This document shows, in pieces, positions 1 through 11,936 of a stretch of DNA of 64,000 nt. The notes under the pieces are model-generated. The model was not told the DNA's origin. It searched no databases and saw only the letters and a program-made list of their open reading frames with translations. Each line of letters begins with the position of its first letter. The stretch's first letter is position 1. The stretch is from Candidatus Binatia bacterium (GTDB lineage Bacteria > Desulfobacterota > Binatia > UBA9968 > JAJDTQ01), in contig JAJEAI010000171.1 of NCBI GenBank assembly GCA_022824205.1, positions 1,193 to 65,192 of the forward strand, written 5' to 3'. The translations under genes and the position numbers were made by a program.

Positions 1-66
1 CGGGCGGGACCGCTGTTGAGGAGAGCGGCCGCGGCGGGCTTTCGGCAACAGGACCAGTATGAATGA
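1..66 (+). CDS. 3' end of an upstream serine protease-Sel1 repeat paralog (partial, gene continues off the window)
   Basis: nt 1-66 are homologous to the 3' tails at 1095-1162, 3253-3320 and 4236-4303. In the homologous frame it reads ...RQQDQYE* with the TGA at 64-66 overlapping the ATG (59) of the next copy. Confidence 0.55.
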   Translation, partial: RAGPLLRRAAAAGFRQQDQYE

Positions 67-1162
67 CACACGACTGCCGGCCTTGGTGCTTGCGGCTCTT
101 TTCGCTGTCGCGCTCTCCACACTCGGCTTGGCCTCACGCTCGGCCGCCGTGGACCTTGAGCATGTCCGAGGCGGGGTATGGAAGGTCTGGAACTGGACCC
201 CGGTGAAGAAAGCGAGGGAAAGTAAGTGGAAGGTCGGAACCACCTTCGCCATCGGACCGAGGTACATGGCAACCGCCCTCCACGTGCTGGCCTCGCACCG
301 CAGGAGGGGAACCCCCATTGCCGACCTCATTCTGAAATACTGGCATCGCGGCTACGTGTCGCCACCCCTCAGAATCAGGAGAGTGGCGGCAATGTCTGCC
401 GTTCATGATCTCGCCATCTTCGAGATCGGAAAGGACAACACCTATCTCCGGCTGGCAGAAGAACCGGTTCCGTCCGGTAGCAGGGGCTTGACGGGGTTCG
501 GCTATCCGGAAGCGGCGGGTAAGGGACTGCGAGTCTTGAGGCAAATCGGCAACGGAATCACCGTGGATCATCGGGTCGCCTCTCGAATCTACATGGCGGT
601 CGACATGGAGAAGCTGGGAGGGGCCAGCGGCGGACCCGTCCTGAGTTCGAAGGGGAAGGTCGTGGGTGTCCAGGTCGCCGGCGATGACAACATCTCCATC
701 GCGGTTACGATCCAACGCCTATGGGATCTCGCGGACGGCAAATCGGGCGTGATATGCCCTGCGTCCACCTCCTTCAATCACTGTTATGAACTGGCAATTG
801 AAGACATGAGAACGGTCGCTGGAAGGCACCATCCGGCGGCGGTCTACAGCCTGTGGAAACACTATGTCGATGGAGACCTCGAGGGCGGGCACGCCGACAA
901 GCTTCATTTGCTCAAGGAAGCTGCGGAACGGGGACACGTTTTGGCGCAACATAACTTGGCGGTGCGTTATGCCGAGGGAGATGTCGTTGAGAAGGATTGG
1001 CGAAAGGCTGACCTGTGGATGGAGCGGGCTGCCAAGCAGAACTTTCCGCCATCTCTCCACCAGTTGGGCAAACGGTATGAGGCCGACGGCGACTCGCGGG
1101 CCGGACCGCTGTTGAGGAGAGCGGCTGCCGCAGGCTATCTGCGAAAGGAGCAATATGAGTGA
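59..1162 (+). CDS. Secreted trypsin-like (S1) serine protease fused to C-terminal Sel1-like repeats, paralog 1 (367 aa)
   Basis: N-terminal hydrophobic signal peptide. His (TALHVLASH), Asp (HDLAIFEI) and Ser (GGASGGPV, GDSGGP-like) triad motifs are present. C-terminal Sel1/TPR-like repeats (GHVLAQHNLAVRYAEGDVV...). About 88% aa identity to the copy at 2208-3320. Confidence 0.8.
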   Translation: MNDTRLPALVLAALFAVALSTLGLASRSAAVDLEHVRGGVWKVWNWTPVKKARESKWKVGTTFAIGPRYMATALHVLASHRRRGTPIADLILKYWHRGYVSPPLRIRRVAAMSAVHDLAIFEIGKDNTYLRLAEEPVPSGSRGLTGFGYPEAAGKGLRVLRQIGNGITVDHRVASRIYMAVDMEKLGGASGGPVLSSKGKVVGVQVAGDDNISIAVTIQRLWDLADGKSGVICPASTSFNHCYELAIEDMRTVAGRHHPAAVYSLWKHYVDGDLEGGHADKLHLLKEAAERGHVLAQHNLAVRYAEGDVVEKDWRKADLWMERAAKQNFPPSLHQLGKRYEADGDSRAGPLLRRAAAAGYLRKEQYE

Positions 1163-1259
1163 TTGAGTAGAGCCATCTGTTCCTCGGCCAAGGCCTCGGT
1201 TTGTTGCTCGGTGAAGCGGGATTCCATCATGTGCTTGACGCATCTATGCGTGTCGAATG
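1163..1259 (-). pseudogene. Remnant (5' half only) of a DUF1640-like small gene; the 87-aa ORF 1135-1398 is a chimeric read-through
   Basis: About 97 bp near-identical to 4465-4561. It encodes ...AFDTHRCVKHMMESRFTEQQTEALAEEQMALLN, matching the N-terminal half of the intact copy at 4348-4590. The C-terminal half is missing and the frame runs into the antisense of the protease tail. Confidence 0.4.
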
Positions 1260-1291
1260 CGATGCCTTCACGCATGGGTTGATCTTGTCGG

Positions 1292-2104
1292 GTGAGTCCC
1301 CGTGGTAGCTGGAATGCCCTGGCCATGAAACAGGCCGTGCAAGTCGCCCGCCCGGCCGGACCATGCCATATTCCGCCCATGCGCTTCTTCAACACCACCG
1401 GGCCGGTGCAGGCGGAGAAGCACTACAGCATCCCGCCGCTGAGCCGGCTGGATCTGGAAGACGTGCTAACGCTCATTCGCGATGAGCGTTACTTCGCTCT
1501 GCTGGCGGCCCGCCAGACCGGCAAGACGACTGCCCTGCTGGCGCTTCGAGAGCTGTTGAACAGCGGCACCGAGGGCGGCTACCGGTGTGTGTACGCCAAT
1601 GTCGAGGCGGCGCAGGCGGCGCGCGAAGACACCGAACGGTCCATGCGCGCGATCCTGAGCGAATTGGCTCACTGGGCACGCTCGACGTTGGGCGACGGAA
1701 CGCTGGCCGGGATGTGGCCCGGGATTCTTGCCGAGGCCGGGCCGAACGGCGCGCTTCGCGAGGCGCTGAGCCGCTGGTCCGAGGCCGACCCGCGGCCGTT
1801 GGTGCTGCTCATCGACGAGATCGACGCGCTGGTGGGCGACACTTTGCTGTCGGTGCTGCGGCAGCTTCGGGCGGGATATGTCCAGCGCCCCCGAGGCTTT
1901 CCCCAGAGCATCATCCTGTGCGGCGTGCGTGACGTGCGCGACTACCGGATCCATTCCAGCGCCGAGAAGGAGATCATCTCGGGCGGGAGCGCGTTCAACG
2001 TCAAGGCCGAGTCGTTGCGGTTGGGGGATTTCTCCGAGGCCGAGGTGCGCGGGTTGCTGGCACATCAAGGTGCTCTGCTTGCGCCCTTCCTGGAACCGGC
2101 GTAA
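1292..2104 (+). CDS. AAA-like ATPase domain protein (RQTGKT P-loop), probably a truncated fragment
   Basis: Motif ...RYFALLAARQTGKTTALLAL... followed by a hhhhDEID Walker-B-like stretch (LVLLIDEIDAL) resembles AAA-like/archaeal-ATPase domains (PF14516-like). Only 270 aa and it is wedged between two protease paralogs; its 5' end overlaps the repeated module. Confidence 0.5.
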   Translation: MSPRGSWNALAMKQAVQVARPAGPCHIPPMRFFNTTGPVQAEKHYSIPPLSRLDLEDVLTLIRDERYFALLAARQTGKTTALLALRELLNSGTEGGYRCVYANVEAAQAAREDTERSMRAILSELAHWARSTLGDGTLAGMWPGILAEAGPNGALREALSRWSEADPRPLVLLIDEIDALVGDTLLSVLRQLRAGYVQRPRGFPQSIILCGVRDVRDYRIHSSAEKEIISGGSAFNVKAESLRLGDFSEAEVRGLLAHQGALLAPFLEPA

Positions 2105-2207
2105 CGTCTGCCGTAACGAATCCGTCCCTCCGGCAACACGCGCGCGCCGGCGATTGGTGCCGTGTTCACGCGGACACGTCCCGCCTACGATCAGGCAAAG
2201 GCATCCC

Positions 2208-3320
2208 ATGGATTCAGCCTCGAATACACGATGCGCGACCGTGATCGTCGCAGCCTTTCTCGTTGTCGCGTTCTCCCTTCTCGGCTCGGTCTCACGCTCG
2301 GCGGCCGTGGACCTGGACCATGTCAGAGGCGGTGTATGGAAGGTCTGGAACTGGACCCCGGTGAAGAAACCGGGAGAGAAGAAGTGGAGAGTGGGGACCG
2401 CCTTCGCCATCGGGCCAAGATACATGGCGACCGCCCTCCATGTGCTGGCGTCGCACCGCAGGAGAGGGACCCCCATTGCCGACCTCATTCTGAAGTACTG
2501 GCATCGCGGCTACGTGTCGCCGCCTCTCCGAATCAAGAGAGTGGCGGCAATGTCTGCCGTTCATGATCTCGCCATCTTCGAGATCGGGAAGGACAACACC
2601 TATCTGCGGCTGGCGGAAGAACCGGTTCCGTCCGGTAGCAGGGGCTTGACGGGGTTCGGCTACCCGGAAGCGGCGGGTAAGGGACTGCGAGTCTTGAGGC
2701 AACTCGGCAACGGGATCACCGTCGATCACCGGGTCGCGTCTCAAATCTACATGGCGGTCAACATGGAGAAGCTGGGCGGGGCCAGCGGCGGACCTGTTCT
2801 GGATTCGAAGGGGAAGGTTGTCGGTGTCCAGGTCCAAGGCGCCGGCAACCTGTCCATCAACGTCACGATCCAACGTCTCTGGGATCTTGCCGATGGCAAG
2901 CTGGGAGTGATTTGCCCCGAGGTTGCCTCCTTCGATCGCTGTTATGAGACGGCAATGGAAGACATGAGAGGGCGCGCGGCAAAGAGAGACCCGGTCGCCG
3001 CCTACAGACTGTGGGAGCACTATTTCGATGGCGACCTCGAGGGCGGGTACGCCGACAAGCTTCATTTGCTCAAGGAAGCTGCCGAACAGGGACACGTCCT
3101 GGCGCAGGTTAACTTGGCGTGGCTTTATGCGCAGGGAGATGTCGTTGGTAAGGACTACCGGAAGGCCGACCTGTGGATGGCGCGGGCCGCGAAGCAGGAC
3201 CATCCGCCAGCCCTGTACGACTTGGGCAAATGGTATCAAGACGACGGCGACTCGCGGGCCGGACTGTTGTTGAGGAGAGCGGCCGCGGCAGGCTATCTGC
3301 AGGAAGACCAGTATGAGTGA
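2208..3320 (+). CDS. Secreted trypsin-like (S1) serine protease fused to C-terminal Sel1-like repeats, paralog 2 (370 aa)
   Basis: The ATG at 2208 gives MDSASNTRCATVIVAAFLVVAFSLLGS... (signal peptide). The rest is collinear with paralog 1: same catalytic motifs, Sel1 repeats and conserved 3' tail ending ...GYLQEDQYE*. The track ORF 1878-3320 has a spurious 5' extension. Confidence 0.8.
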   Translation: MDSASNTRCATVIVAAFLVVAFSLLGSVSRSAAVDLDHVRGGVWKVWNWTPVKKPGEKKWRVGTAFAIGPRYMATALHVLASHRRRGTPIADLILKYWHRGYVSPPLRIKRVAAMSAVHDLAIFEIGKDNTYLRLAEEPVPSGSRGLTGFGYPEAAGKGLRVLRQLGNGITVDHRVASQIYMAVNMEKLGGASGGPVLDSKGKVVGVQVQGAGNLSINVTIQRLWDLADGKLGVICPEVASFDRCYETAMEDMRGRAAKRDPVAAYRLWEHYFDGDLEGGYADKLHLLKEAAEQGHVLAQVNLAWLYAQGDVVGKDYRKADLWMARAAKQDHPPALYDLGKWYQDDGDSRAGLLLRRAAAAGYLQEDQYE

Positions 3321-3429
3321 ACGCAACCGGAGAGATTCCGTTCCAGGCAGGCTGGCAGGAACCAATTGTCGGAGGCTTGGCGACGCCCATTTCCGACCTT
3401 ATGTCCAAGTACGGGCACCCCAGCCCTCG

Positions 3430-3553
3430 GGATCAAGCCCGGCTCGAAACTACCTTGCGTCCCTCCCGAAACCGGCCCAACATCAACACGTAGACTTGGC
3501 GACCCGTCGGCGCCTTTATTGCCATCGCCGGCTTGGTTGTTGTCATCACCTGA
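3430..3553 (+). pseudogene. Decayed remnant of a DUF1640-like gene C-terminus (in-frame TAG)
   Basis: The plus-strand frame reads ...PNINT*TWRPVGAFIAIAGLVVVIT*. Compare the intact copy at 5103-5336: ...AAINTQTWRLIGAAIAIAGLAVAITRLL*. The CAG codon is replaced by TAG. Confidence 0.3.
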
Positions 3554-3614
3554 GTGCTCCGAGAGCCCTGTCCCCGGTAAACGAACTTGACGGGTTGCCG
3601 CACAGGAGAGCGAG

Positions 3615-3845
3615 ATGGATAGAATAGCTGTCGATCCACGGGTTCACTTCGGCAAGCCGTGTGTTGCCGGCACGCGCATCGCGGTACAGGACGTCCTGGA
3701 ACTTGTCGACGAGGAGATCCCTTTCGTTCAGATCATTCGTGATTACTATCCCGACCTCACGACCGAGGACATCCATGCGTGCATTCGGTACGCAATTGCC
3801 TTGGTCGGAGCAGAAGGCATCCACCTACGCACGACGTCCGCCTGA
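3615..3845 (+). CDS. DUF433 family protein (antitoxin-like partner of DUF5615)
   Basis: MDRIAVDPRVHFGKPCVAGTRIAV... is typical DUF433. The stop overlaps or abuts the ATG of the next gene. Confidence 0.8.
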   Translation: MDRIAVDPRVHFGKPCVAGTRIAVQDVLELVDEEIPFVQIIRDYYPDLTTEDIHACIRYAIALVGAEGIHLRTTSA

Positions 3846-4208
3846 ATGAGATTTCTGCTCGACCAGGACGTGTACGCAGCCACGGCCCGGCATCCGGAGA
3901 GTCTTGGACACGATGTCGTTCGTGCATCCGAAATCGGTCTCTCCCGCGCCACGGACGAAACGTTGCTTGAGGTCGCTTGTGAAGACGAAAGGGTGTTCGT
4001 TACTCGTGACAGAGACTTCGGGCGCATCGTGTTCCTGAATCGACAGCATGGGGCGGTTCTATACTTGCGTATGCTCCCCTCAACACAAGACGCCGTTCAC
4101 CGGGAACTTGACGCAGTACTGCAAACGTATGGGACAGACGAGTTGGCGAAGGCATTTGTCGTCGTCGAACCAGGTGGTCACAGGCTCAGACGACTGCCCT
4201 CGGGGTGA
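3846..4208 (+). CDS. DUF5615 family (PIN-like / Mut7-C-like) putative toxin
   Basis: MRFLLDQDV..., 120 aa, immediately downstream of and coupled to DUF433: a common two-gene arrangement. Confidence 0.7.
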   Translation: MRFLLDQDVYAATARHPESLGHDVVRASEIGLSRATDETLLEVACEDERVFVTRDRDFGRIVFLNRQHGAVLYLRMLPSTQDAVHRELDAVLQTYGTDELAKAFVVVEPGGHRLRRLPSG

Positions 4209-4235
4209 TCGGCCAGCCCGCGCCGAGAACCGTTT

Positions 4236-4303
4236 CGCGGGCCGGACCGTTGTTGAGGAGAGCGGCTGCGGCAGGCTATCTGCGGAAGGATCAGTATGAG
4301 TGA
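4236..4303 (+). repeat. Orphan copy of the conserved protease-Sel1 3' tail (encodes RAGPLLRRAAAAGYLRKDQYE*), remnant of a deleted paralog
   Basis: Near-identical to 1095-1162 and 3253-3320. Not part of any long ORF here; in a different frame from the track ORF 4048-4299. Confidence 0.6.
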
Positions 4304-4347
4304 ACGCAGCCGGGGAGCTTCTGTCCCGCACCGACGCTGCGAGTGCG

Positions 4348-4590
4348 CTACAACAGCTTGACCAAGGTGACGACCAAGCCTCCTTGGGCGATCAACGCCC
4401 CCAGGGTCCACTTCAGTAGATCTGCCTTGACGGCCTCGATGTCCGCCTTGGTCGCCAAGTTGCCATTGAGTAGAGCCATCTGTTCCTCGGCCAAGGCTTC
4501 GGCCTGTTGCTCGGTGAAGCCGGATTCCGTCATGTGCTTGACGAATCTATGCGTGTCGAATGCGGCGTGAGTATCGAGGAGGAGCCTCAC
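4348..4590 (-). CDS. DUF1640-like small protein with C-terminal hydrophobic anchor (80 aa), intact copy
   Basis: MRLLLDTHAAFDTHRFVKHMTESGFTEQQAEALAEEQMALLNGNLATKADIEAVKADLLKWTLGALIAQGGLVVTLVKLL. Same architecture as the 5103-5336 copy (FDT..GF..QAEA..A...LATKADL...W..G....GL.V....LL). Confidence 0.55.
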   Translation of the reverse strand: MRLLLDTHAAFDTHRFVKHMTESGFTEQQAEALAEEQMALLNGNLATKADIEAVKADLLKWTLGALIAQGGLVVTLVKLL

Positions 4591-4596
4591 TTCGGC

Positions 4597-4827
4597 TCAA
4601 CCCTCCCAAGCCGCCAGTTCGTCCTCCGGCAGTGGCTCCAGGATGCTGTCGTCGACGGCGACTTGCCCCTTCATGGCACCGAAGCGTCGCTTGCCGGGTG
4701 ACTTGCAGCGAACAAGCCGTGCGACGGGTTGGCCCCGACGGGCGATCACCACATCTTCCCCCGCCTCGACTTGGGCCAGAAGGCGGGAGAGCTGAGTTTT
4801 CGCTTGATGGACGTTGACGACGGGCAT
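4597..4827 (-). CDS. Phd/YefM-family type II antitoxin (no cognate toxin recognisable)
   Basis: MPVVNVHQAKTQLSRLLAQVEAGEDVVIARRGQPVARLV... is the classic Phd/YefM N-terminus. The downstream gene is the DUF1640-like protein rather than a PIN/Doc/RelE toxin. Confidence 0.8.
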   Translation of the reverse strand: MPVVNVHQAKTQLSRLLAQVEAGEDVVIARRGQPVARLVRCKSPGKRRFGAMKGQVAVDDSILEPLPEDELAAWEG

Positions 4828-5102
4828 GACCTTGGATCTCCTAAGGACAGACTTGGCTAAGAGTATGATTAAGCGCTGAAAACAATCAAGGCCTCGCCGG
4901 GGGTCGAGATCGAGGTGTGGGGCATGTGAGCGGGCACGGCGCCTCGGCGGATCGCCATGACAGGCATCTCAAGACTTCAGCCGCAGACAAACGGTGGGGC
5001 GGCATCGAGAGGGAATACGGCCTGGGGCGGTGGCGTACGGCTTTAACACCTTCGAGGTCATCCATCTTGCGCCCATCCCGAAACCAGCGTAACATTCTCA
5101 AC

Positions 5103-5336
5103 GTGGACGTCGATGTCGACACCGTGGAGATCTCGCGCGAACTGACCCAAGCCGGCGTTGAACGCGATCAAGCGGATGCGATTGCCAGCGCAATGCGTAG
5201 GGTCGCTCATGGTAGCCGCGAGGATTTGGTGACAAAAGCCGACCTGGAGGCGGCGATCAACACGCAGACTTGGCGGTTGATAGGTGCCGCGATTGCGATA
5301 GCGGGCCTCGCCGTCGCCATCACCCGCCTGCTTTGA
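5103..5336 (+). CDS. DUF1640-like small protein with C-terminal hydrophobic anchor; putative GTG start
   Basis: (M)DVDVDTVEISRELTQAGVERDQADAIASAMRR...LVTKADLEAAINTQTWRLIGAAIAIAGLAVAITRLL. The track ORF 4917-5336 probably over-extends at the 5' end. Confidence 0.5.
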   Translation: MDVDVDTVEISRELTQAGVERDQADAIASAMRRVAHGSREDLVTKADLEAAINTQTWRLIGAAIAIAGLAVAITRLL

Positions 5337-8593: not shown

Positions 8594-9619
8594 CTACCAA
8601 TACCGTTCGCGTATCCGGAGCACCTCCCGGATACGGGTCGCGATGCGCTCCCCGCTCCCGTCGAAGGAGGCGGCTTCTTCCGACTGCATGCACTCCAGCA
8701 CGGTGGCCACGGAGTTGCGCAGCGCGGCGAGATCGTATCCCCCTTCCAGAAGAAAAGCGATCTTGCCGCCGGTGTGTCTCCGCGCCAGCTCCAGCAACGC
8801 GTTGGCCATGACGCCGAAGCCGCGCTCGGTGACGCCCATGGCGCCGAGGGGATCGTCGCGGTGCGAGTCGAACCCGGCCGACACGAGCAGCCAGTCGGGC
8901 TCATAGCGCTCGATGGCCGGGACGATGATGTCCCGGAATACCGCCAGATACTCGGCGTCGCCGCAACCGGCCGGCAGCGGCACGTTTACCGTGTAGCCCT
9001 CTCCCCGGCCGTTCCCTGCCTCGTCCGCGGCTCCGGTGCCTGGATAGTACGGGTACTGGTGCGTCGACAGGAACAGCACGGACGGGTCGTCGTAGAACGC
9101 GTCCTGCGAGCCGTTGCCGTGGTGCACGTCCCAGTCCATGATGGCGACCCGCCGCGCGCCGTGTTTCTCCTGCAGATAGCGGGCGCCGATGGCCACCGTG
9201 TTGAACAGGCAGAACCCCATGCCGCGGTTCCGCAGCGCGTGATGCCCCGGCGGCCGCGCCATGGTGAAACCGTTGCCGTAGTCCGCCGCCGCCACCGCGT
9301 CCAGAAGCTGCAGGAACCCGCCCACCGCCATCAACGCCACGCCGAAGGAGTCCCGGCAGGTGATGGTGTCGCCGTCGAGAGCGAACCGGTTGTGCTCGGA
9401 AGTCGAGCGGACAAGGTCGATGTAGTCGGAACCGTGGCACAACTCCAGCTCCGCCTGCACCGCCGCTCGCAACGGCAGCAGCTCGAAGCGGTCGCCACCG
9501 GCCGCGACCTCGCCGGCGAGGTCGAGAAGCGTCTGGATCCGCTGCGGGTGCTCGGGGTGATACGGACCCGGTTCGTGCTTGAGGAACACCGGGTCGGTGA
9601 CGATGGCGGAACGGGGCAT
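8594..9619 (-). CDS. Histone deacetylase-family protein (acetoin utilisation AcuC / acetylpolyamine amidohydrolase-like)
   Basis: ...PPGHHA...DWDVHHGNG...GFDSHRDDPLG...EGGY: HDAC/arginase-fold signature. Confidence 0.85.
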   Translation of the reverse strand: MPRSAIVTDPVFLKHEPGPYHPEHPQRIQTLLDLAGEVAAGGDRFELLPLRAAVQAELELCHGSDYIDLVRSTSEHNRFALDGDTITCRDSFGVALMAVGGFLQLLDAVAAADYGNGFTMARPPGHHALRNRGMGFCLFNTVAIGARYLQEKHGARRVAIMDWDVHHGNGSQDAFYDDPSVLFLSTHQYPYYPGTGAADEAGNGRGEGYTVNVPLPAGCGDAEYLAVFRDIIVPAIERYEPDWLLVSAGFDSHRDDPLGAMGVTERGFGVMANALLELARRHTGGKIAFLLEGGYDLAALRNSVATVLECMQSEEAASFDGSGERIATRIREVLRIRERYW

Positions 9620-9678
9620 GCTCCGCGCAATCTACCATCATGCAGGATACGGGTCAAAGATCCGGCTTGTCCCCTTGT

Positions 9679-10932: not shown

Positions 10933-11936
10933 GTCTACACGCAATGACGCTACCTGCTCGCGCCAACGCCTCGGAATCGCCTCGATGCCGAATCGCGCGC
11001 CAAGCACCGCGCCCGCCACGGCGCCGTTGGTGTCGGTGTCCCCGCCGGCGTTGACGACGGCGATCAGCGCCTCCTCGAAGTCCGTGGCCCGACGCGCGCA
11101 CCACAGGGCCACCCGCATGGTCTTGAGGGTGTAGCCCATGTCCTGCCCATCCAGGCCAATCTCCTCCGGCATGGTGATATCCGAAACGTCCAAGGCTTGC
11201 GTCATCTTAGTCCGCGCGGGTGCGTCGATGCCGAACGGCGCCAAGGCATCGCCAAGCGTTTCCCGCGCCCGTTCGGCGCGCTCAACGAGCGGCAACGCGC
11301 TGTCCGGCGATTCCTGCAGGAGCGAAGCAATGGCGAGATTCACGAACACCGAGGACCAAGTGCAGCGGGGATCCCAGTGGGTGACCACGGCGCTGACGAT
11401 GGTGTTGCGAACCAGCGCCACGTCGTCATGTCGCCAGCGAATGGCAAGGGGCGCGCAGCGCATGACCGCGCCATTGCCGGCCGCGTTGCCGCCGGTCTCC
11501 TCCCAAGCCACGAAAGGAGCCTCCGAGCAGGCAAGCCCACCGGCTCACGCGCCGGCTGGAAGTCCGGCGGCGCCGAGCTGCGTCGGCGCACAGAGAGAGA
11601 CCGGTAACGTCTGGGCGGGCTGCCGCCGTATAGGGTCAATACCCGAGACGTCAAGTTGCCCATGCCAAGGCCGTTTTCCTCACCCCAGACCCAGAAACGC
11701 CGGGCGAGGTCGTCGGCATCCAGGGCCGCCGCGCCGTCACACGCCTCGGCTAGAATGACGGCCTGCGCCACGTCGTCATCGTCGGGGTAGCCCGGTTTCG
11801 CTTCGATGTCGCGCACGCCGTTGGGCCTGCGGAGGCGGATTTCCTCCCGCGGCCAACCCTCCCACGGAATGCCGAGCAGGTTACCGACCGCGAGCCCGAC
11901 CATGAGGCCACGACAACGATCCTGAAGTTCCATTGG
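10891..11936 (-). pseudogene. ADP-ribosylglycohydrolase (DraG/ARH family), frameshifted into two ORFs
   Basis: N-terminal part (ORF 11340-12002): MELQDRCRGLMVGLAVGNLLGIPWEG...DDDVAQA. C-terminal part (ORF 10891-11511): ...GNGAVMRCAPLAI...NAGGDTDTNGAVAGAVLGA.... The frame break is near 11.5-11.7 kb. Confidence 0.65.

Follow-up and report, generated by a model that had tools for sequence, protein, structure and literature searches.

The window analysed here, a 64,000-nt stretch of a contig (L001) from an uncultured Binatia-like bacterium, carries a ~5.8-kb islet of atypical composition amid core metabolic genes. GC content is 0.615 in the islet versus 0.657 in the remaining window, and GC3 of the protease genes is 0.67-0.79 versus 0.88-0.95 in adjacent core genes. 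Sample labels suggest that the source habitat is a sponge microbiome. The islet holds two intact protease paralogs and two short copies of their 3′ end, together with several unrelated genes and gene remnants; a three-copy array on another contig, L003 (copies a-b-c), is orthologous to it and serves as the reference below.

1 to 66, plus strand: 3′ tail of a pseudogene, copy 0, the positional ortholog of L003 copy a
59 to 1162, plus strand: copy 1, an intact Trypsin_2 protease with Sel1-like repeats, predicted to be exported; 367 aa, mosaic
1162 to 1261, minus strand: DUF1640 (CCDC90-like) gene fragment abutting the copy 1 stop codon, 94% identical to 4465-4564
1292 to 2104, plus strand: truncated AAA_22-type ATPase open reading frame, inserted between copies 1 and 2
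2076 to 2207, plus strand: copy 2 leader, common to copy 0 and L003 copy a
2208 to 3320, plus strand: copy 2, an intact Trypsin_2 protease with Sel1-like repeats, predicted to be exported; 370 aa, ortholog of L003 copy c
3454 to 3558, plus strand: 28-30-nt motif and, after it, a DUF1640 remnant with an internal deletion
3615 to 4208, plus strand: paired genes for DUF433 and DUF5615 (PIN/Mut7-C-like) proteins that separate copy 2 from the orphan tail, probably a toxin-antitoxin module
4235 to 4327, plus strand: orphan stump, the 3′ end of a fourth protease paralog (last 22 codons, stop codon and 24 nt downstream)
4348 to 4590, minus strand: DUF1640 (CCDC90-like) gene 3′ of the orphan tail

The limits of both full genes are as the earlier note had given them, and the ATG at 2208 matches the starts of homologs; the orphan tail, which it had confined to 4236-4303, extends past its stop codon. 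Copy 2 is 94.7% identical to L003c at the nucleotide level, and its leader opens with a 28-30-nt imperfect palindrome (2078-2107). The ATPase reading frame has no counterpart in the orthologous b-c junction of L003. At the 1162-1261 junction, 161 nt are missing compared with the arrangement around the orphan tail; the same DUF1640 neighbour formerly adjoined copy 1.

An array of this kind might be an assembly artefact, made of collapsed or chimeric repeats, and the source is indeed a short-read metagenome scaffold in which paralogs share stretches of ~100-190 nt at 97-99% identity. Against this, the window source, scaffold_377 (SAMN22237345) and scaffold_1067 (SAMN22237344) share the array at 99.98-99.99% identity over more than 10 kb, and copy order and junctions agree with those of the L003 array, which stems from another study. 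Moreover, the copies are only 85% identical overall, so that short reads would resolve them easily. We regard an artefact as highly improbable.

The proteins

Each intact paralog consists of a predicted N-terminal export signal or anchor of Sec type, a Trypsin_2 protease domain and ~3.5 Sel1-like repeats, so that the earlier description of tandem S1-type proteases fused to Sel1 repeats is borne out by Pfam and profile matches, with export as a prediction. The protease domains of the two copies score 42.2 and 44.3 bits against Trypsin_2 (PF13365; cutoff 27.6), with the whole model covered. The catalytic triad, H75 (ATALHV), D117 (HDLAI) and S190 (GASGGP), is invariant across the family, and its motifs align with TNKHV, DIA and GxSGS of SplE and SplD. 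A family profile searched against solved structures retrieves SplE, SplD, SplA, MarP and V8 at E values from 1e-9 to 1e-5, with TN.HV, DLA and G.SG aligned. In the AlphaFold (AF2) model (pLDDT 75), the beta strands at residues 40-217 form a predicted beta-barrel protease with poorly predicted loops at 138-172; a Foldseek search with this model returns Deg8, HtrA, DegS, MarP and Esp at probability 1.0, the target-normalised TM score being at most 0.62. The double beta-barrel of such proteases is thus present in a model of moderate confidence. By its sequence the domain is assigned to the chymotrypsin-fold serine peptidases (MEROPS clan PA, S1B/S1C-like) and is presumably active; its nearest proteases are staphylococcal Spl and V8, MarP and HtrA.

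The Sel1 assignment depends on how the search is done. Single sequences score 21-25 bits against Sel1 (PF08238), below the 30.7 cutoff, whereas a search with the family profile recovers Sel1-repeat proteins of solved structure over positions 246-367 at E = 9e-62 to 1e-19, which makes the identification by profile unambiguous. The model places seven helices at residues 239-357 (pLDDT mostly 82-94), in keeping with the tandem antiparallel helix pairs of ~36-44 residues typical of Sel1-like repeat proteins. By analogy with the PDZ domain of HtrA proteases, the repeats presumably bind a partner or substrate. The N-terminus has a single Arg, a hydrophobic core of 15-20 residues and then (S/L)-x-A preceding V; the signal peptide was called by a heuristic alone, and a hydrophobic core of ~20 residues fits a membrane anchor equally well.

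The subfamily is lineage-restricted and very narrow. About 17 close relatives were found among 5.8 billion proteins, all in a single 50%-identity cluster, with 367-373 aa and ~3.5 repeats. As the earlier note had proposed to check, homologs do occur in arrays elsewhere: arrays of two to three copies are found in four kinds of contig, namely in the window, in L003 (n=3, with the same 8-nt overlap between a and b as between copies 0 and 1), in L009 (n=3) and in L010 (n=2), and single genes are found at L002/L008, L005, L006, L007, L011 and L013. The contigs that carry these 71-95% identical genes are labelled inconsistently as Chromatiales, Syntrophobacterales, Bryobacterales and Binatia.

The reiterated 3′ end

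Four copies of the 66-nt tail are present in the window (1-66, 1097-1162, 3255-3320 and 4238-4303), and its 29-nt core has four matches at three or fewer mismatches where none is expected. The earlier note took this reiteration for a near-identical, specially conserved 3′ module. From what is now known of the family, that view does not hold. The local tails are 79-93% identical, the mean across the family is ~78% nucleotide identity, not above the gene average, and synonymous divergence in the tail (dS 0.80) is the highest of all gene regions. Extra copies outside intact genes were found in this lineage only, and at none of nine other loci.

Both of these are deletion stumps. Copy 0, whose last bases do share 8 nt (ATGAATGA) with the start of copy 1 as first described, is not a full gene; it is an internally deleted, frameshifted pseudogene at 9254-9675 of the parent contig, of which 9254-9609 lie upstream of the window. 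Its leader and first 49 codons are joined to the last ~46 codons via a 4-nt microhomology, leaving start codon and tail in different frames. The 5′ 280 nt are 91% identical to the leader and N-terminus of copy 2, and the 138-nt tail is 96% identical to that of L003a. The orphan stump (93 nt) is 93% identical to the copy 1 tail and 88% identical to that of copy 2. The reiterated module is nothing more than the ordinary 3′ ends of the two intact genes, together with what is left of two inactivated ones. That both stumps retained their 3′ ends is explained in part: in the copy 0 tail lie a Shine-Dalgarno-like AGGA and the copy 1 ATG, and copy 1 takes its start from this tail, a role that the orphan tail does not have.

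Another idea is that the tail is kept as a functional nucleic-acid element, a translational-coupling joint in which a Shine-Dalgarno sequence and an ATG overlapping the stop codon would drive the downstream gene. An ATG lies in the last 8 nt of all 17 tails, with AGGA or AAGGA 5-6 nt upstream in most; at the junctions of copy 0 with copy 1 and of L003a with L003b the next gene starts at this ATG; and the copy 0 stump retains exactly leader and joint. In L009 and L010, however, the next copy begins 88 nt downstream with its own GGAGG, single-copy loci have the same tail with no downstream partner, and the gene next to the orphan tail is convergent with it. Set against the other Tyr codons of the family, TAT at residue 366 shows no excess conservation, a comparison that yields no signal of selection for the embedded ATG. 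Coupling may well operate at individual junctions; as the reason for the tail's persistence we think it unlikely.

The other suggestion of the earlier note, a polymorphic-effector array, fares worse. In systems of the Rhs/CdiA type, a variable C-terminal toxin domain and its adjacent immunity gene are reiterated as orphan pairs. A tandem set of predicted exported proteins with an orphan 3′ fragment, and with toxin-antitoxin-type genes nearby, recalls that logic. Yet the piece that is reiterated here is the conserved last helix of the Sel1 domain and not a variable toxin domain, and what comes after the tails is part of a DUF1640 gene, unrelated intergenic sequence or a DUF1640 gene in convergent orientation, with no immunity gene following them. 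The neighbourhood has neither a demarcating motif nor a secretion-system gene, and PADLOC matches are at the level of the protease domain only. We find it hardly credible that the locus is of this kind.

Mosaicism and selection

Divergence is distributed along the genes in a manner other than first described. The protease domains of the two copies, put at more than 95% identity by the earlier note, come close to that figure without exceeding it (~90-100% of residues per 30-residue window; ~91% in nucleotides). The Sel1 repeats, which were said to be the most divergent part, are 70-90% identical; divergence is greatest in the signal peptide, at 40% amino-acid identity, and next in the linker at residues 241-270, at 53%. 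Across the family, mean nucleotide identity reaches ~87% in the core; the linker and Sel1 repeats follow at ~77-81%, and the signal peptide at ~67%.

Relatives differ from one part of a gene to the next. Nearest neighbours change along copy 1, L010a and L011. In copy 1, residues 1-42 resemble L003b, 43-102 L003a, 103-165 copy 2 and L003c, and 163-367 the L010a, L006 and L005 types; compared with L003b, its signal peptide is 89% identical and its linker and Sel1 repeats only 72-76%. The tail of L010a is 97% identical to that of L009b, with a near-identical spacer, and the signal peptide of L010b is 93% identical to that of L009c. Two junction units are thus conserved, each joining the 3′ end of one gene to the 5′ end of the next: copy 0 tail with copy 1 signal peptide matches L003a tail with L003b signal peptide, and L010a tail, spacer and L010b signal peptide match those of L009b and L009c. 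Within the reading frames, the pairing of 5′ and 3′ parts is broken although these units are kept. The congruence of junction units comes from two junction cases among four comparable arrays, not from full phylogenies. The PHI statistic was 0.465 versus 0.536 +/- 0.007 under permutation, a value reached in 0 of 2000 permutations, and identical-run tests gave p = 0.0002 to 0.01; both tests were home-made implementations. All sequences but one chromosome are short-read metagenome assemblies, in which chimeras of paralogs or strains could add to the apparent mosaicism. Taken together, the sequences strongly indicate segment exchange among copies, by gene conversion or recombination.

Selection is purifying throughout. 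The dN/dS analysis by domain that the earlier note had called for gave 0.18-0.27 in all regions but the signal peptide (0.59), with medians of 0.27 (linker) and 0.25 (Sel1 repeats) and 0-1 of 105 pairs exceeding 1 by this region-wide measure, which gives no sign of diversifying selection on the variable region. Synonymous divergence is lowest in the protease core (dS 0.39).

These results bear on the gene-conversion cassettes proposed by the earlier note, of which the exchange of segments stands and the cassettes do not. In systems of the pilE/pilS and vlsE/vls type, silent, promoterless partial copies hold a variable region flanked by conserved blocks, and that region is under diversifying selection. 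A programmed system of this sort, with one expressed protease-Sel1 gene diversified from silent partial cassettes and the 3′ module as homology anchor, would account for the exchange and for the partial copies that lie beside full ones. The partial copies, however, have no linker and Sel1 region to donate, copy 0 comprising codons 1-49 and the last ~46 and the orphan 22 codons; both full copies are intact, each with its own start; and the stumps are absent from the nine other loci. With the highest dS of the gene, the tail is not maintained as a block of DNA homology, and dN/dS is below 1 everywhere. Programmed conversion is therefore very unlikely.

Evolution of the array

The reading that we prefer, and hold to be probable, is birth-and-death evolution of the ordinary kind, with gene conversion, in a recombining tandem family of exported protease-Sel1 proteins. 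Tandem duplication would have enlarged the family into a same-strand array of a-b-c and at least one further copy. At the a-to-b junction, the terminal codons (...AGGA-N5-ATGARTGA) would give the next gene its ribosome-binding site and start codon. The well-conserved protease core would serve as substrate for homologous recombination or gene conversion among paralogs and alleles, and recombination there would shuffle the variable ends, the signal peptide on the 5′ side and the linker with the Sel1 repeats on the 3′ side, with the junction units of 3′ end and next 5′ end remaining linked. Copies would be inactivated in two ways, by illegitimate deletions whose junctions have 1-4 nt of homology and by the insertion of other sequences (the ATPase fragment, DUF1640 and toxin-antitoxin genes), and stumps would remain of them.

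Relation to known systems

The closest precedent for this mode is the tandem lipoprotein-like paralogs (lpl) of Staphylococcus aureus, where a conserved central region is the recombination substrate, the unit of 3′ end, intergenic region and next 5′ end is conserved between genomes, and the two variable ends of a reading frame group with different relatives (Tsuru & Kobayashi 2008, PMC2568036). As with lpl, same-strand tandem paralogs of exported proteins lie in a genomic islet and have a conserved core between variable 5′ and 3′ regions; both signatures of the lpl model, incongruent 5′/3′ relatives and conserved junction units, are found here. Protein family and phylum differ, and the present arrays have two to three live copies each and clear decay products.

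For the protease itself, the nearest parallel is the spl operon (SplA-F) of S. aureus, a set of tandem paralogs of secreted S1B-type chymotrypsin-fold serine proteases on a variable genomic island (PMC8765433, PMC5061998). It too is a tandem protease array, and when the protease domain is compared by sequence with solved structures, Spl proteins rank first, at remote identity (E ~1e-9, by profile only). Spl proteins are single-domain, without Sel1 repeats, and their host is unlike the uncultured Gram-negative-type lineage here. HtrA/DegP/DegS and MarP, the top Foldseek matches of the model, appear to share the plan, in which a chymotrypsin-fold protease is exported and has a protein-binding domain at its C-terminus; here that domain consists of Sel1 repeats and not of PDZ, and sequence similarity is marginal.

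The same two-domain architecture carries the NCBI name [quoted passage not shown], which is also given to one family member (P0013). The profile search matched many proteins of 420-560 aa over both domains; compared with these, the present subfamily of ~17 close members is shorter and arrayed. We know of no protein of this architecture with a characterised function. The domain architecture was already annotated and the evolutionary mode already described, and no new mechanism is involved.

An effector role for the exported protease-Sel1 proteins is possible. A bolder idea is that sponge-associated Binatia, and symbionts living alongside them, have in these proteins a mix-and-match set of secreted effectors, in which paralogs, strains and possibly phyla recombine, Sel1 targeting modules being reassorted on a constant protease to track targets in hosts or competitors. 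The arrays would then be the workshop, and the discordant taxonomic labels would reflect real horizontal exchange rather than mis-binning. We consider this rather unlikely. If the birth-and-death reading is right, the array offers a clean environmental, non-pathogen case of the tandem-paralog recombination model in an uncultured phylum, with the core as crossover site and the junction units preserved. Attention is also drawn to a very narrow family of protease-Sel1 fusions, arrayed and predicted to be exported; in these apparent sponge microbiomes, proteins of the host or of neighbours might be what they act on.

Array layout and assembly agreement

The window opens within a repeat, and the tail, the 66-nt 3' end of the protease-Sel1 genes, is found in it four times (1-66, 1097-1162, 3255-3320 and 4238-4303) by ORF listing, repeat finding and mismatch-tolerant search, against a chance expectation of none. 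The tandem paralogy proposed in the earlier note is borne out as two intact genes (copies 1 and 2) and two stumps (copy 0 and an orphan), arranged as follows.

59-1162, copy 1, intact gene, 367 aa, tail at its end
1162-1261 (-), DUF1640 (CCDC90-like) copy or fragment
1292-2104 (+), truncated AAA_22-type ATPase ORF, 270 aa, GC 0.69, an insertion separating copy 1 from copy 2
2078-2107, 3454-3483 and 5066-5095, 28-30-nt motif
2208-3320, copy 2, intact gene, 370 aa, tail at its end
3482-3558 (+), internally deleted DUF1640 remnant
3615-4208 (+), intact DUF433 and DUF5615 (PIN/Mut7-C-like) pair, 3' of copy 2 and ahead of the orphan tail; the stop codon of one gene abuts the start codon of the other
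4235-4327, homology of the orphan tail
4348-4590 (-), DUF1640 copy or fragment
4597-4827 (-), Phd/YefM antitoxin
5103-5336 (+), DUF1640 copy or fragment

Copy 0, upstream of the window, is no gene, its two parts being out of frame with each other: a 5' part is fused at a TGGA microhomology to the final 138 nt of a paralog, with about 820 nt lost. On L001, the parent-contig equivalent (window position = L001 position - 9609), 9254-9533 is 91% identical to the leader and first 49 codons of copy 2. Copy 1 begins within the first tail, the two sharing 8 nt that include its ATG (ATGAATGA). The orphan is a bare 3' stump that starts directly after the DUF433/DUF5615 pair, its homology reaching 24 nt past the stop codon and matching the region 3' of copy 2. 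Microhomology at all deletion junctions was considered and rejected: it amounts to 4 nt at the copy-0 junction only and to 1-2 nt at the others, and for that reason a "TGAGT microhomology" at the joint of copy 1 with DUF1640 was dropped. What the copy-0 stump retains is precisely the leader and the tail/ATG joint, which could account for its survival, possibly as promoter and start-site donor to copy 1.

The earlier note named assembly artefact as a check. An ENA scaffold of 78.9 kb (scaffold_377, which is L001) differs from the window by 2 mismatches in 11 kb, and scaffold_1067 (L012) by 1 in 10.7 kb; since these public scaffolds come from two different samples, independent assemblies concur on the array. 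An artefact is an unlikely source, because three assemblies are concordant and an orthologous array exists. The islet, the roughly 5.8-kb atypical region holding the array, has a GC of 0.615 versus 0.657 in the remaining window, and GC3 is 0.67-0.79 in the protease genes versus 0.88-0.95 in the neighbouring FabF, FabH, deacetylase and EamA genes. No tRNA or integrase was found at the islet edges. About 1.2 kb 5' of the window start (L001 8355-8478), some six tandem 20-nt units (CCTCCCTTCCGTCATTCCCG) adjoin a DUF1989 gene.

The protein family and its distribution

The domain content suggested from sequence holds: Trypsin_2 scores over the Pfam threshold, and Sel1, which falls under it with one sequence, is recovered when a family profile of 20 sequences is compared with solved structures (Sel1-repeat proteins at 246-367, E down to 9e-62). 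The protease part of the profile matches staphylococcal Spl proteases, V8/Esp glutamyl endopeptidases and MarP; a PDB search with the protease domain as a single sequence gave no match, so the profile was required. HMM alignment to SplE and SplD places the catalytic residues at H75 (ATALHV), D117 (HDLAI) and S190 (GASGGP), all three invariant across the family. In an AlphaFold model (pLDDT 75, pTM 0.78), seven helices come after a beta-rich protease, and Foldseek groups the protease with HtrA, DegS, MarP and Esp. The N-terminus of each member has a single Arg, then a hydrophobic core of 15-20 residues and then (S/L)-x-A preceding V, which by heuristic fits a Sec signal peptide or signal anchor; the invariant cysteines C233 and C242 would likewise be compatible with an exported protein. 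NCBIfam has no model at family level. The two-domain architecture is already named by NCBI ([quoted passage not shown]) and is common, many proteins of 420-560 aa matching the profile over both domains.

The family itself is small. Among 5.8 billion cluster representatives there are 22 matching proteins, 17 of them at 70-84% identity. The family falls into a single cluster at the 50%-identity level, and a scan of JGI metagenomes added only one further relative, single-copy. An exact look-up of copy 1 was empty, the gene caller having chosen a later start; the contig was reached through a 256-aa call, P0014. As the earlier note had asked, arrays do occur elsewhere, in a genomic context that differs at each locus. 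Partial copies were found at the window locus and at no other family locus.

Loci carrying family members
Window / L001 / L012: 2 intact copies and 2 stumps
L003 (= L004): 3 intact copies, tandem
L009: 3 copies, 88-nt spacers
L010: 2 copies, tandem
L002 (= L008) and L006: 1 copy each, two loci on one complete 4.77-Mb "Candidatus Binatia" chromosome
L005, L007, L011 and L013: 1 copy each, L005 close to a contig end

Carriers of 71-95% identical members (L003/L004, L005, L007, L006/L008) are labelled Chromatiales, Syntrophobacterales, Bryobacterales and Candidatus Binatia; either short repeat-bearing contigs were mis-binned, or there was horizontal transfer among co-resident lineages. Binatia MAGs have been reported from Ircinia sponges (PMC9531527), and together with the naming of samples (KELL22 and others) this suggests a sponge-microbiome origin. 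No literature on SRP109090 or OZ241976 was found. On the Binatia chromosome, L006 has a premature TAG five codons ahead of the usual stop (~11080-11104), with the downstream GGATCAGTATGAGTGA intact, so that protein P0004 ends ...AAAGFLE, which suggests that the very last part of the gene acquired a nonsense mutation recently.

The tail as protein, and its embedded start codon

The earlier note saw in the tail a reiterated, conserved 3' module. A functional module of that kind is not supported.

Median dN/dS and dS by region
Signal peptide: dN/dS 0.59, dS 0.62
Protease core: dN/dS 0.18, dS 0.39
Linker: dN/dS 0.27, dS 0.70
Sel1 repeats: dN/dS 0.25, dS 0.61
Tail: dN/dS 0.18, dS 0.80

With a dN/dS as low as that of the core and the highest dS of all regions, the tail is conserved as protein and not as DNA, and the idea of a specially conserved DNA module was rejected. 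The stumps are restricted to one lineage. The tail comprises the last Sel1 helix (modelled, residues 348-357) and a short (K/E)(D/E)QYE end. For the core, a low dS is consistent with homogenisation through gene conversion.

Within the final 8 nt of all tails lies an ATG, with an AGGA-like sequence 5-6 nt 5' of it, and at two junctions this ATG serves as the start of the next gene. Selection for the ATG was considered and set aside, conservation of its TAT codon not exceeding that of other Tyr codons. Read from the sequences, translational coupling would be a use to which the tail is put locally rather than the cause of its existence, because the Tyr codon that makes the ATG is not extra conserved and because single-copy genes retain the same tail.

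Across the 88-nt spacers of L009 (4129-4225, 5333-5429) and L010 (2393-2489), the tail ATG shares the reading frame of the copy that follows, with no intervening stop codon. Of the 5' leader, internal copies in these arrays retain the 3' portion; they lack a promoter-like TTGAAC-N18-TATATT, which precedes first or single copies; two of them start with TTG.

Orthologous array and mosaic copies

By position, the array in the window corresponds to the one in L003: the L003 a/b junction has the identical 8-nt overlap, the sequence 3' of L003c runs on into the window's post-copy-2 sequence, and identity is 94.7% between copy 2 and L003c and 96% between the copy-0 and L003a tails. The triplication is thus older than the split of the two organisms. 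Copy 1 is a mosaic.

Closest relatives of copy 1 by segment
aa 1-42: L003b, 89-90%
aa 43-102: L003a, 96-97%
aa 103-165: copy 2 / L003c, 94-99%
aa 163-367: L010a, L006 and L005 types, 80-95% (across linker and Sel1 repeats, L003b reaches only 72-76%)

L010a resembles L009a at its 5' end, L006 over residues 178-332 (93-98%) and L009b in the tail (97%), and L011 has segments resembling L009a, L007 and L009b. With 207 informative sites, a PHI-type test gave 0.465 versus 0.536 +/- 0.007 in permuted data, 0 of 2000 permutations reaching the observed value, and longest-identical-run tests on several pairs gave p = 0.0002 to 0.01. The hint of gene conversion in the earlier note is thereby strengthened, though chimeric assembly could enlarge the mosaic signal somewhat. 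In the two cases that allow arrays to be compared, the unit of 3' end, junction and next 5' end is kept while the 5' and 3' parts within one ORF are re-paired. The tandem lipoprotein-like (lpl) cluster of S. aureus has been described as behaving in this way, with recombination taking place in a central conserved region (PMC2568036).

Interleaved genes and the 28-30-nt motif

Four copies or fragments of DUF1640, a small membrane-protein gene, lie among the protease copies. Copy 1 runs at its stop codon straight into the interior of one DUF1640 gene, and the same sequence (94% identical) sits 161 nt past the orphan tail, which means that protease 3' end plus DUF1640 was formerly a duplicated unit. 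The AAA_22 ORF, whose 3' end continues into the 28-30-nt motif, is absent from the orthologous L003 b-c junction. The DUF433/DUF5615 pair is probably a type II toxin-antitoxin module.

One DUF1640 copy is internally deleted like copy 0, its 5' leader and 3' end kept. On the minus strand of 4348-4827, the Phd/YefM antitoxin is followed by a DUF1640 ORF rather than a toxin; the first nine codons of that ORF (MRLLLDTHA) resemble a PIN/VapC N-terminus, and this suggests a truncated toxin gene fused to DUF1640.

The motif, an imperfect palindrome (CTTGCGyCCnTCCyGrAACCrGCnyAACrT) also present at L001 9256-9285 and L003 4182-4211, is the exact left homology boundary 5' of copy 0, copy 2 and L003a. 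It also stands 5' of two unrelated DUF1640 genes or remnants, and is not in the remaining 58 kb of the window or at other loci. It could be a common promoter/operator or a recombination joint. Its GGAAC/GAAAC-N15-17-CGT resembles the ECF-sigma type, and an ECF sigma gene adjoins the L011 homolog; a sigma-70 scan of the islet gave no signal above background. Read as integron attC, it has an R''-like GCGTAAC but lacks the R' site to match, and the vicinity contains no integrase. An RNA hairpin was rejected, the three copies showing, by eye, no pair covariation.

Interpretation

A silent-cassette system does not agree with stumps that contain no variable region and selection that is purifying, nor does a polymorphic-toxin locus with the lack of an immunity-type partner. 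A defence-system reading was discarded, the PADLOC matches being at protease-domain level only. The best description is a lineage-restricted exported protease-Sel1 family evolving via tandem duplication, core-mediated recombination and decay. Its architecture and its evolutionary mode are both of already known kinds, and the effector role raised in the earlier note is a possible hypothesis for these proteins.
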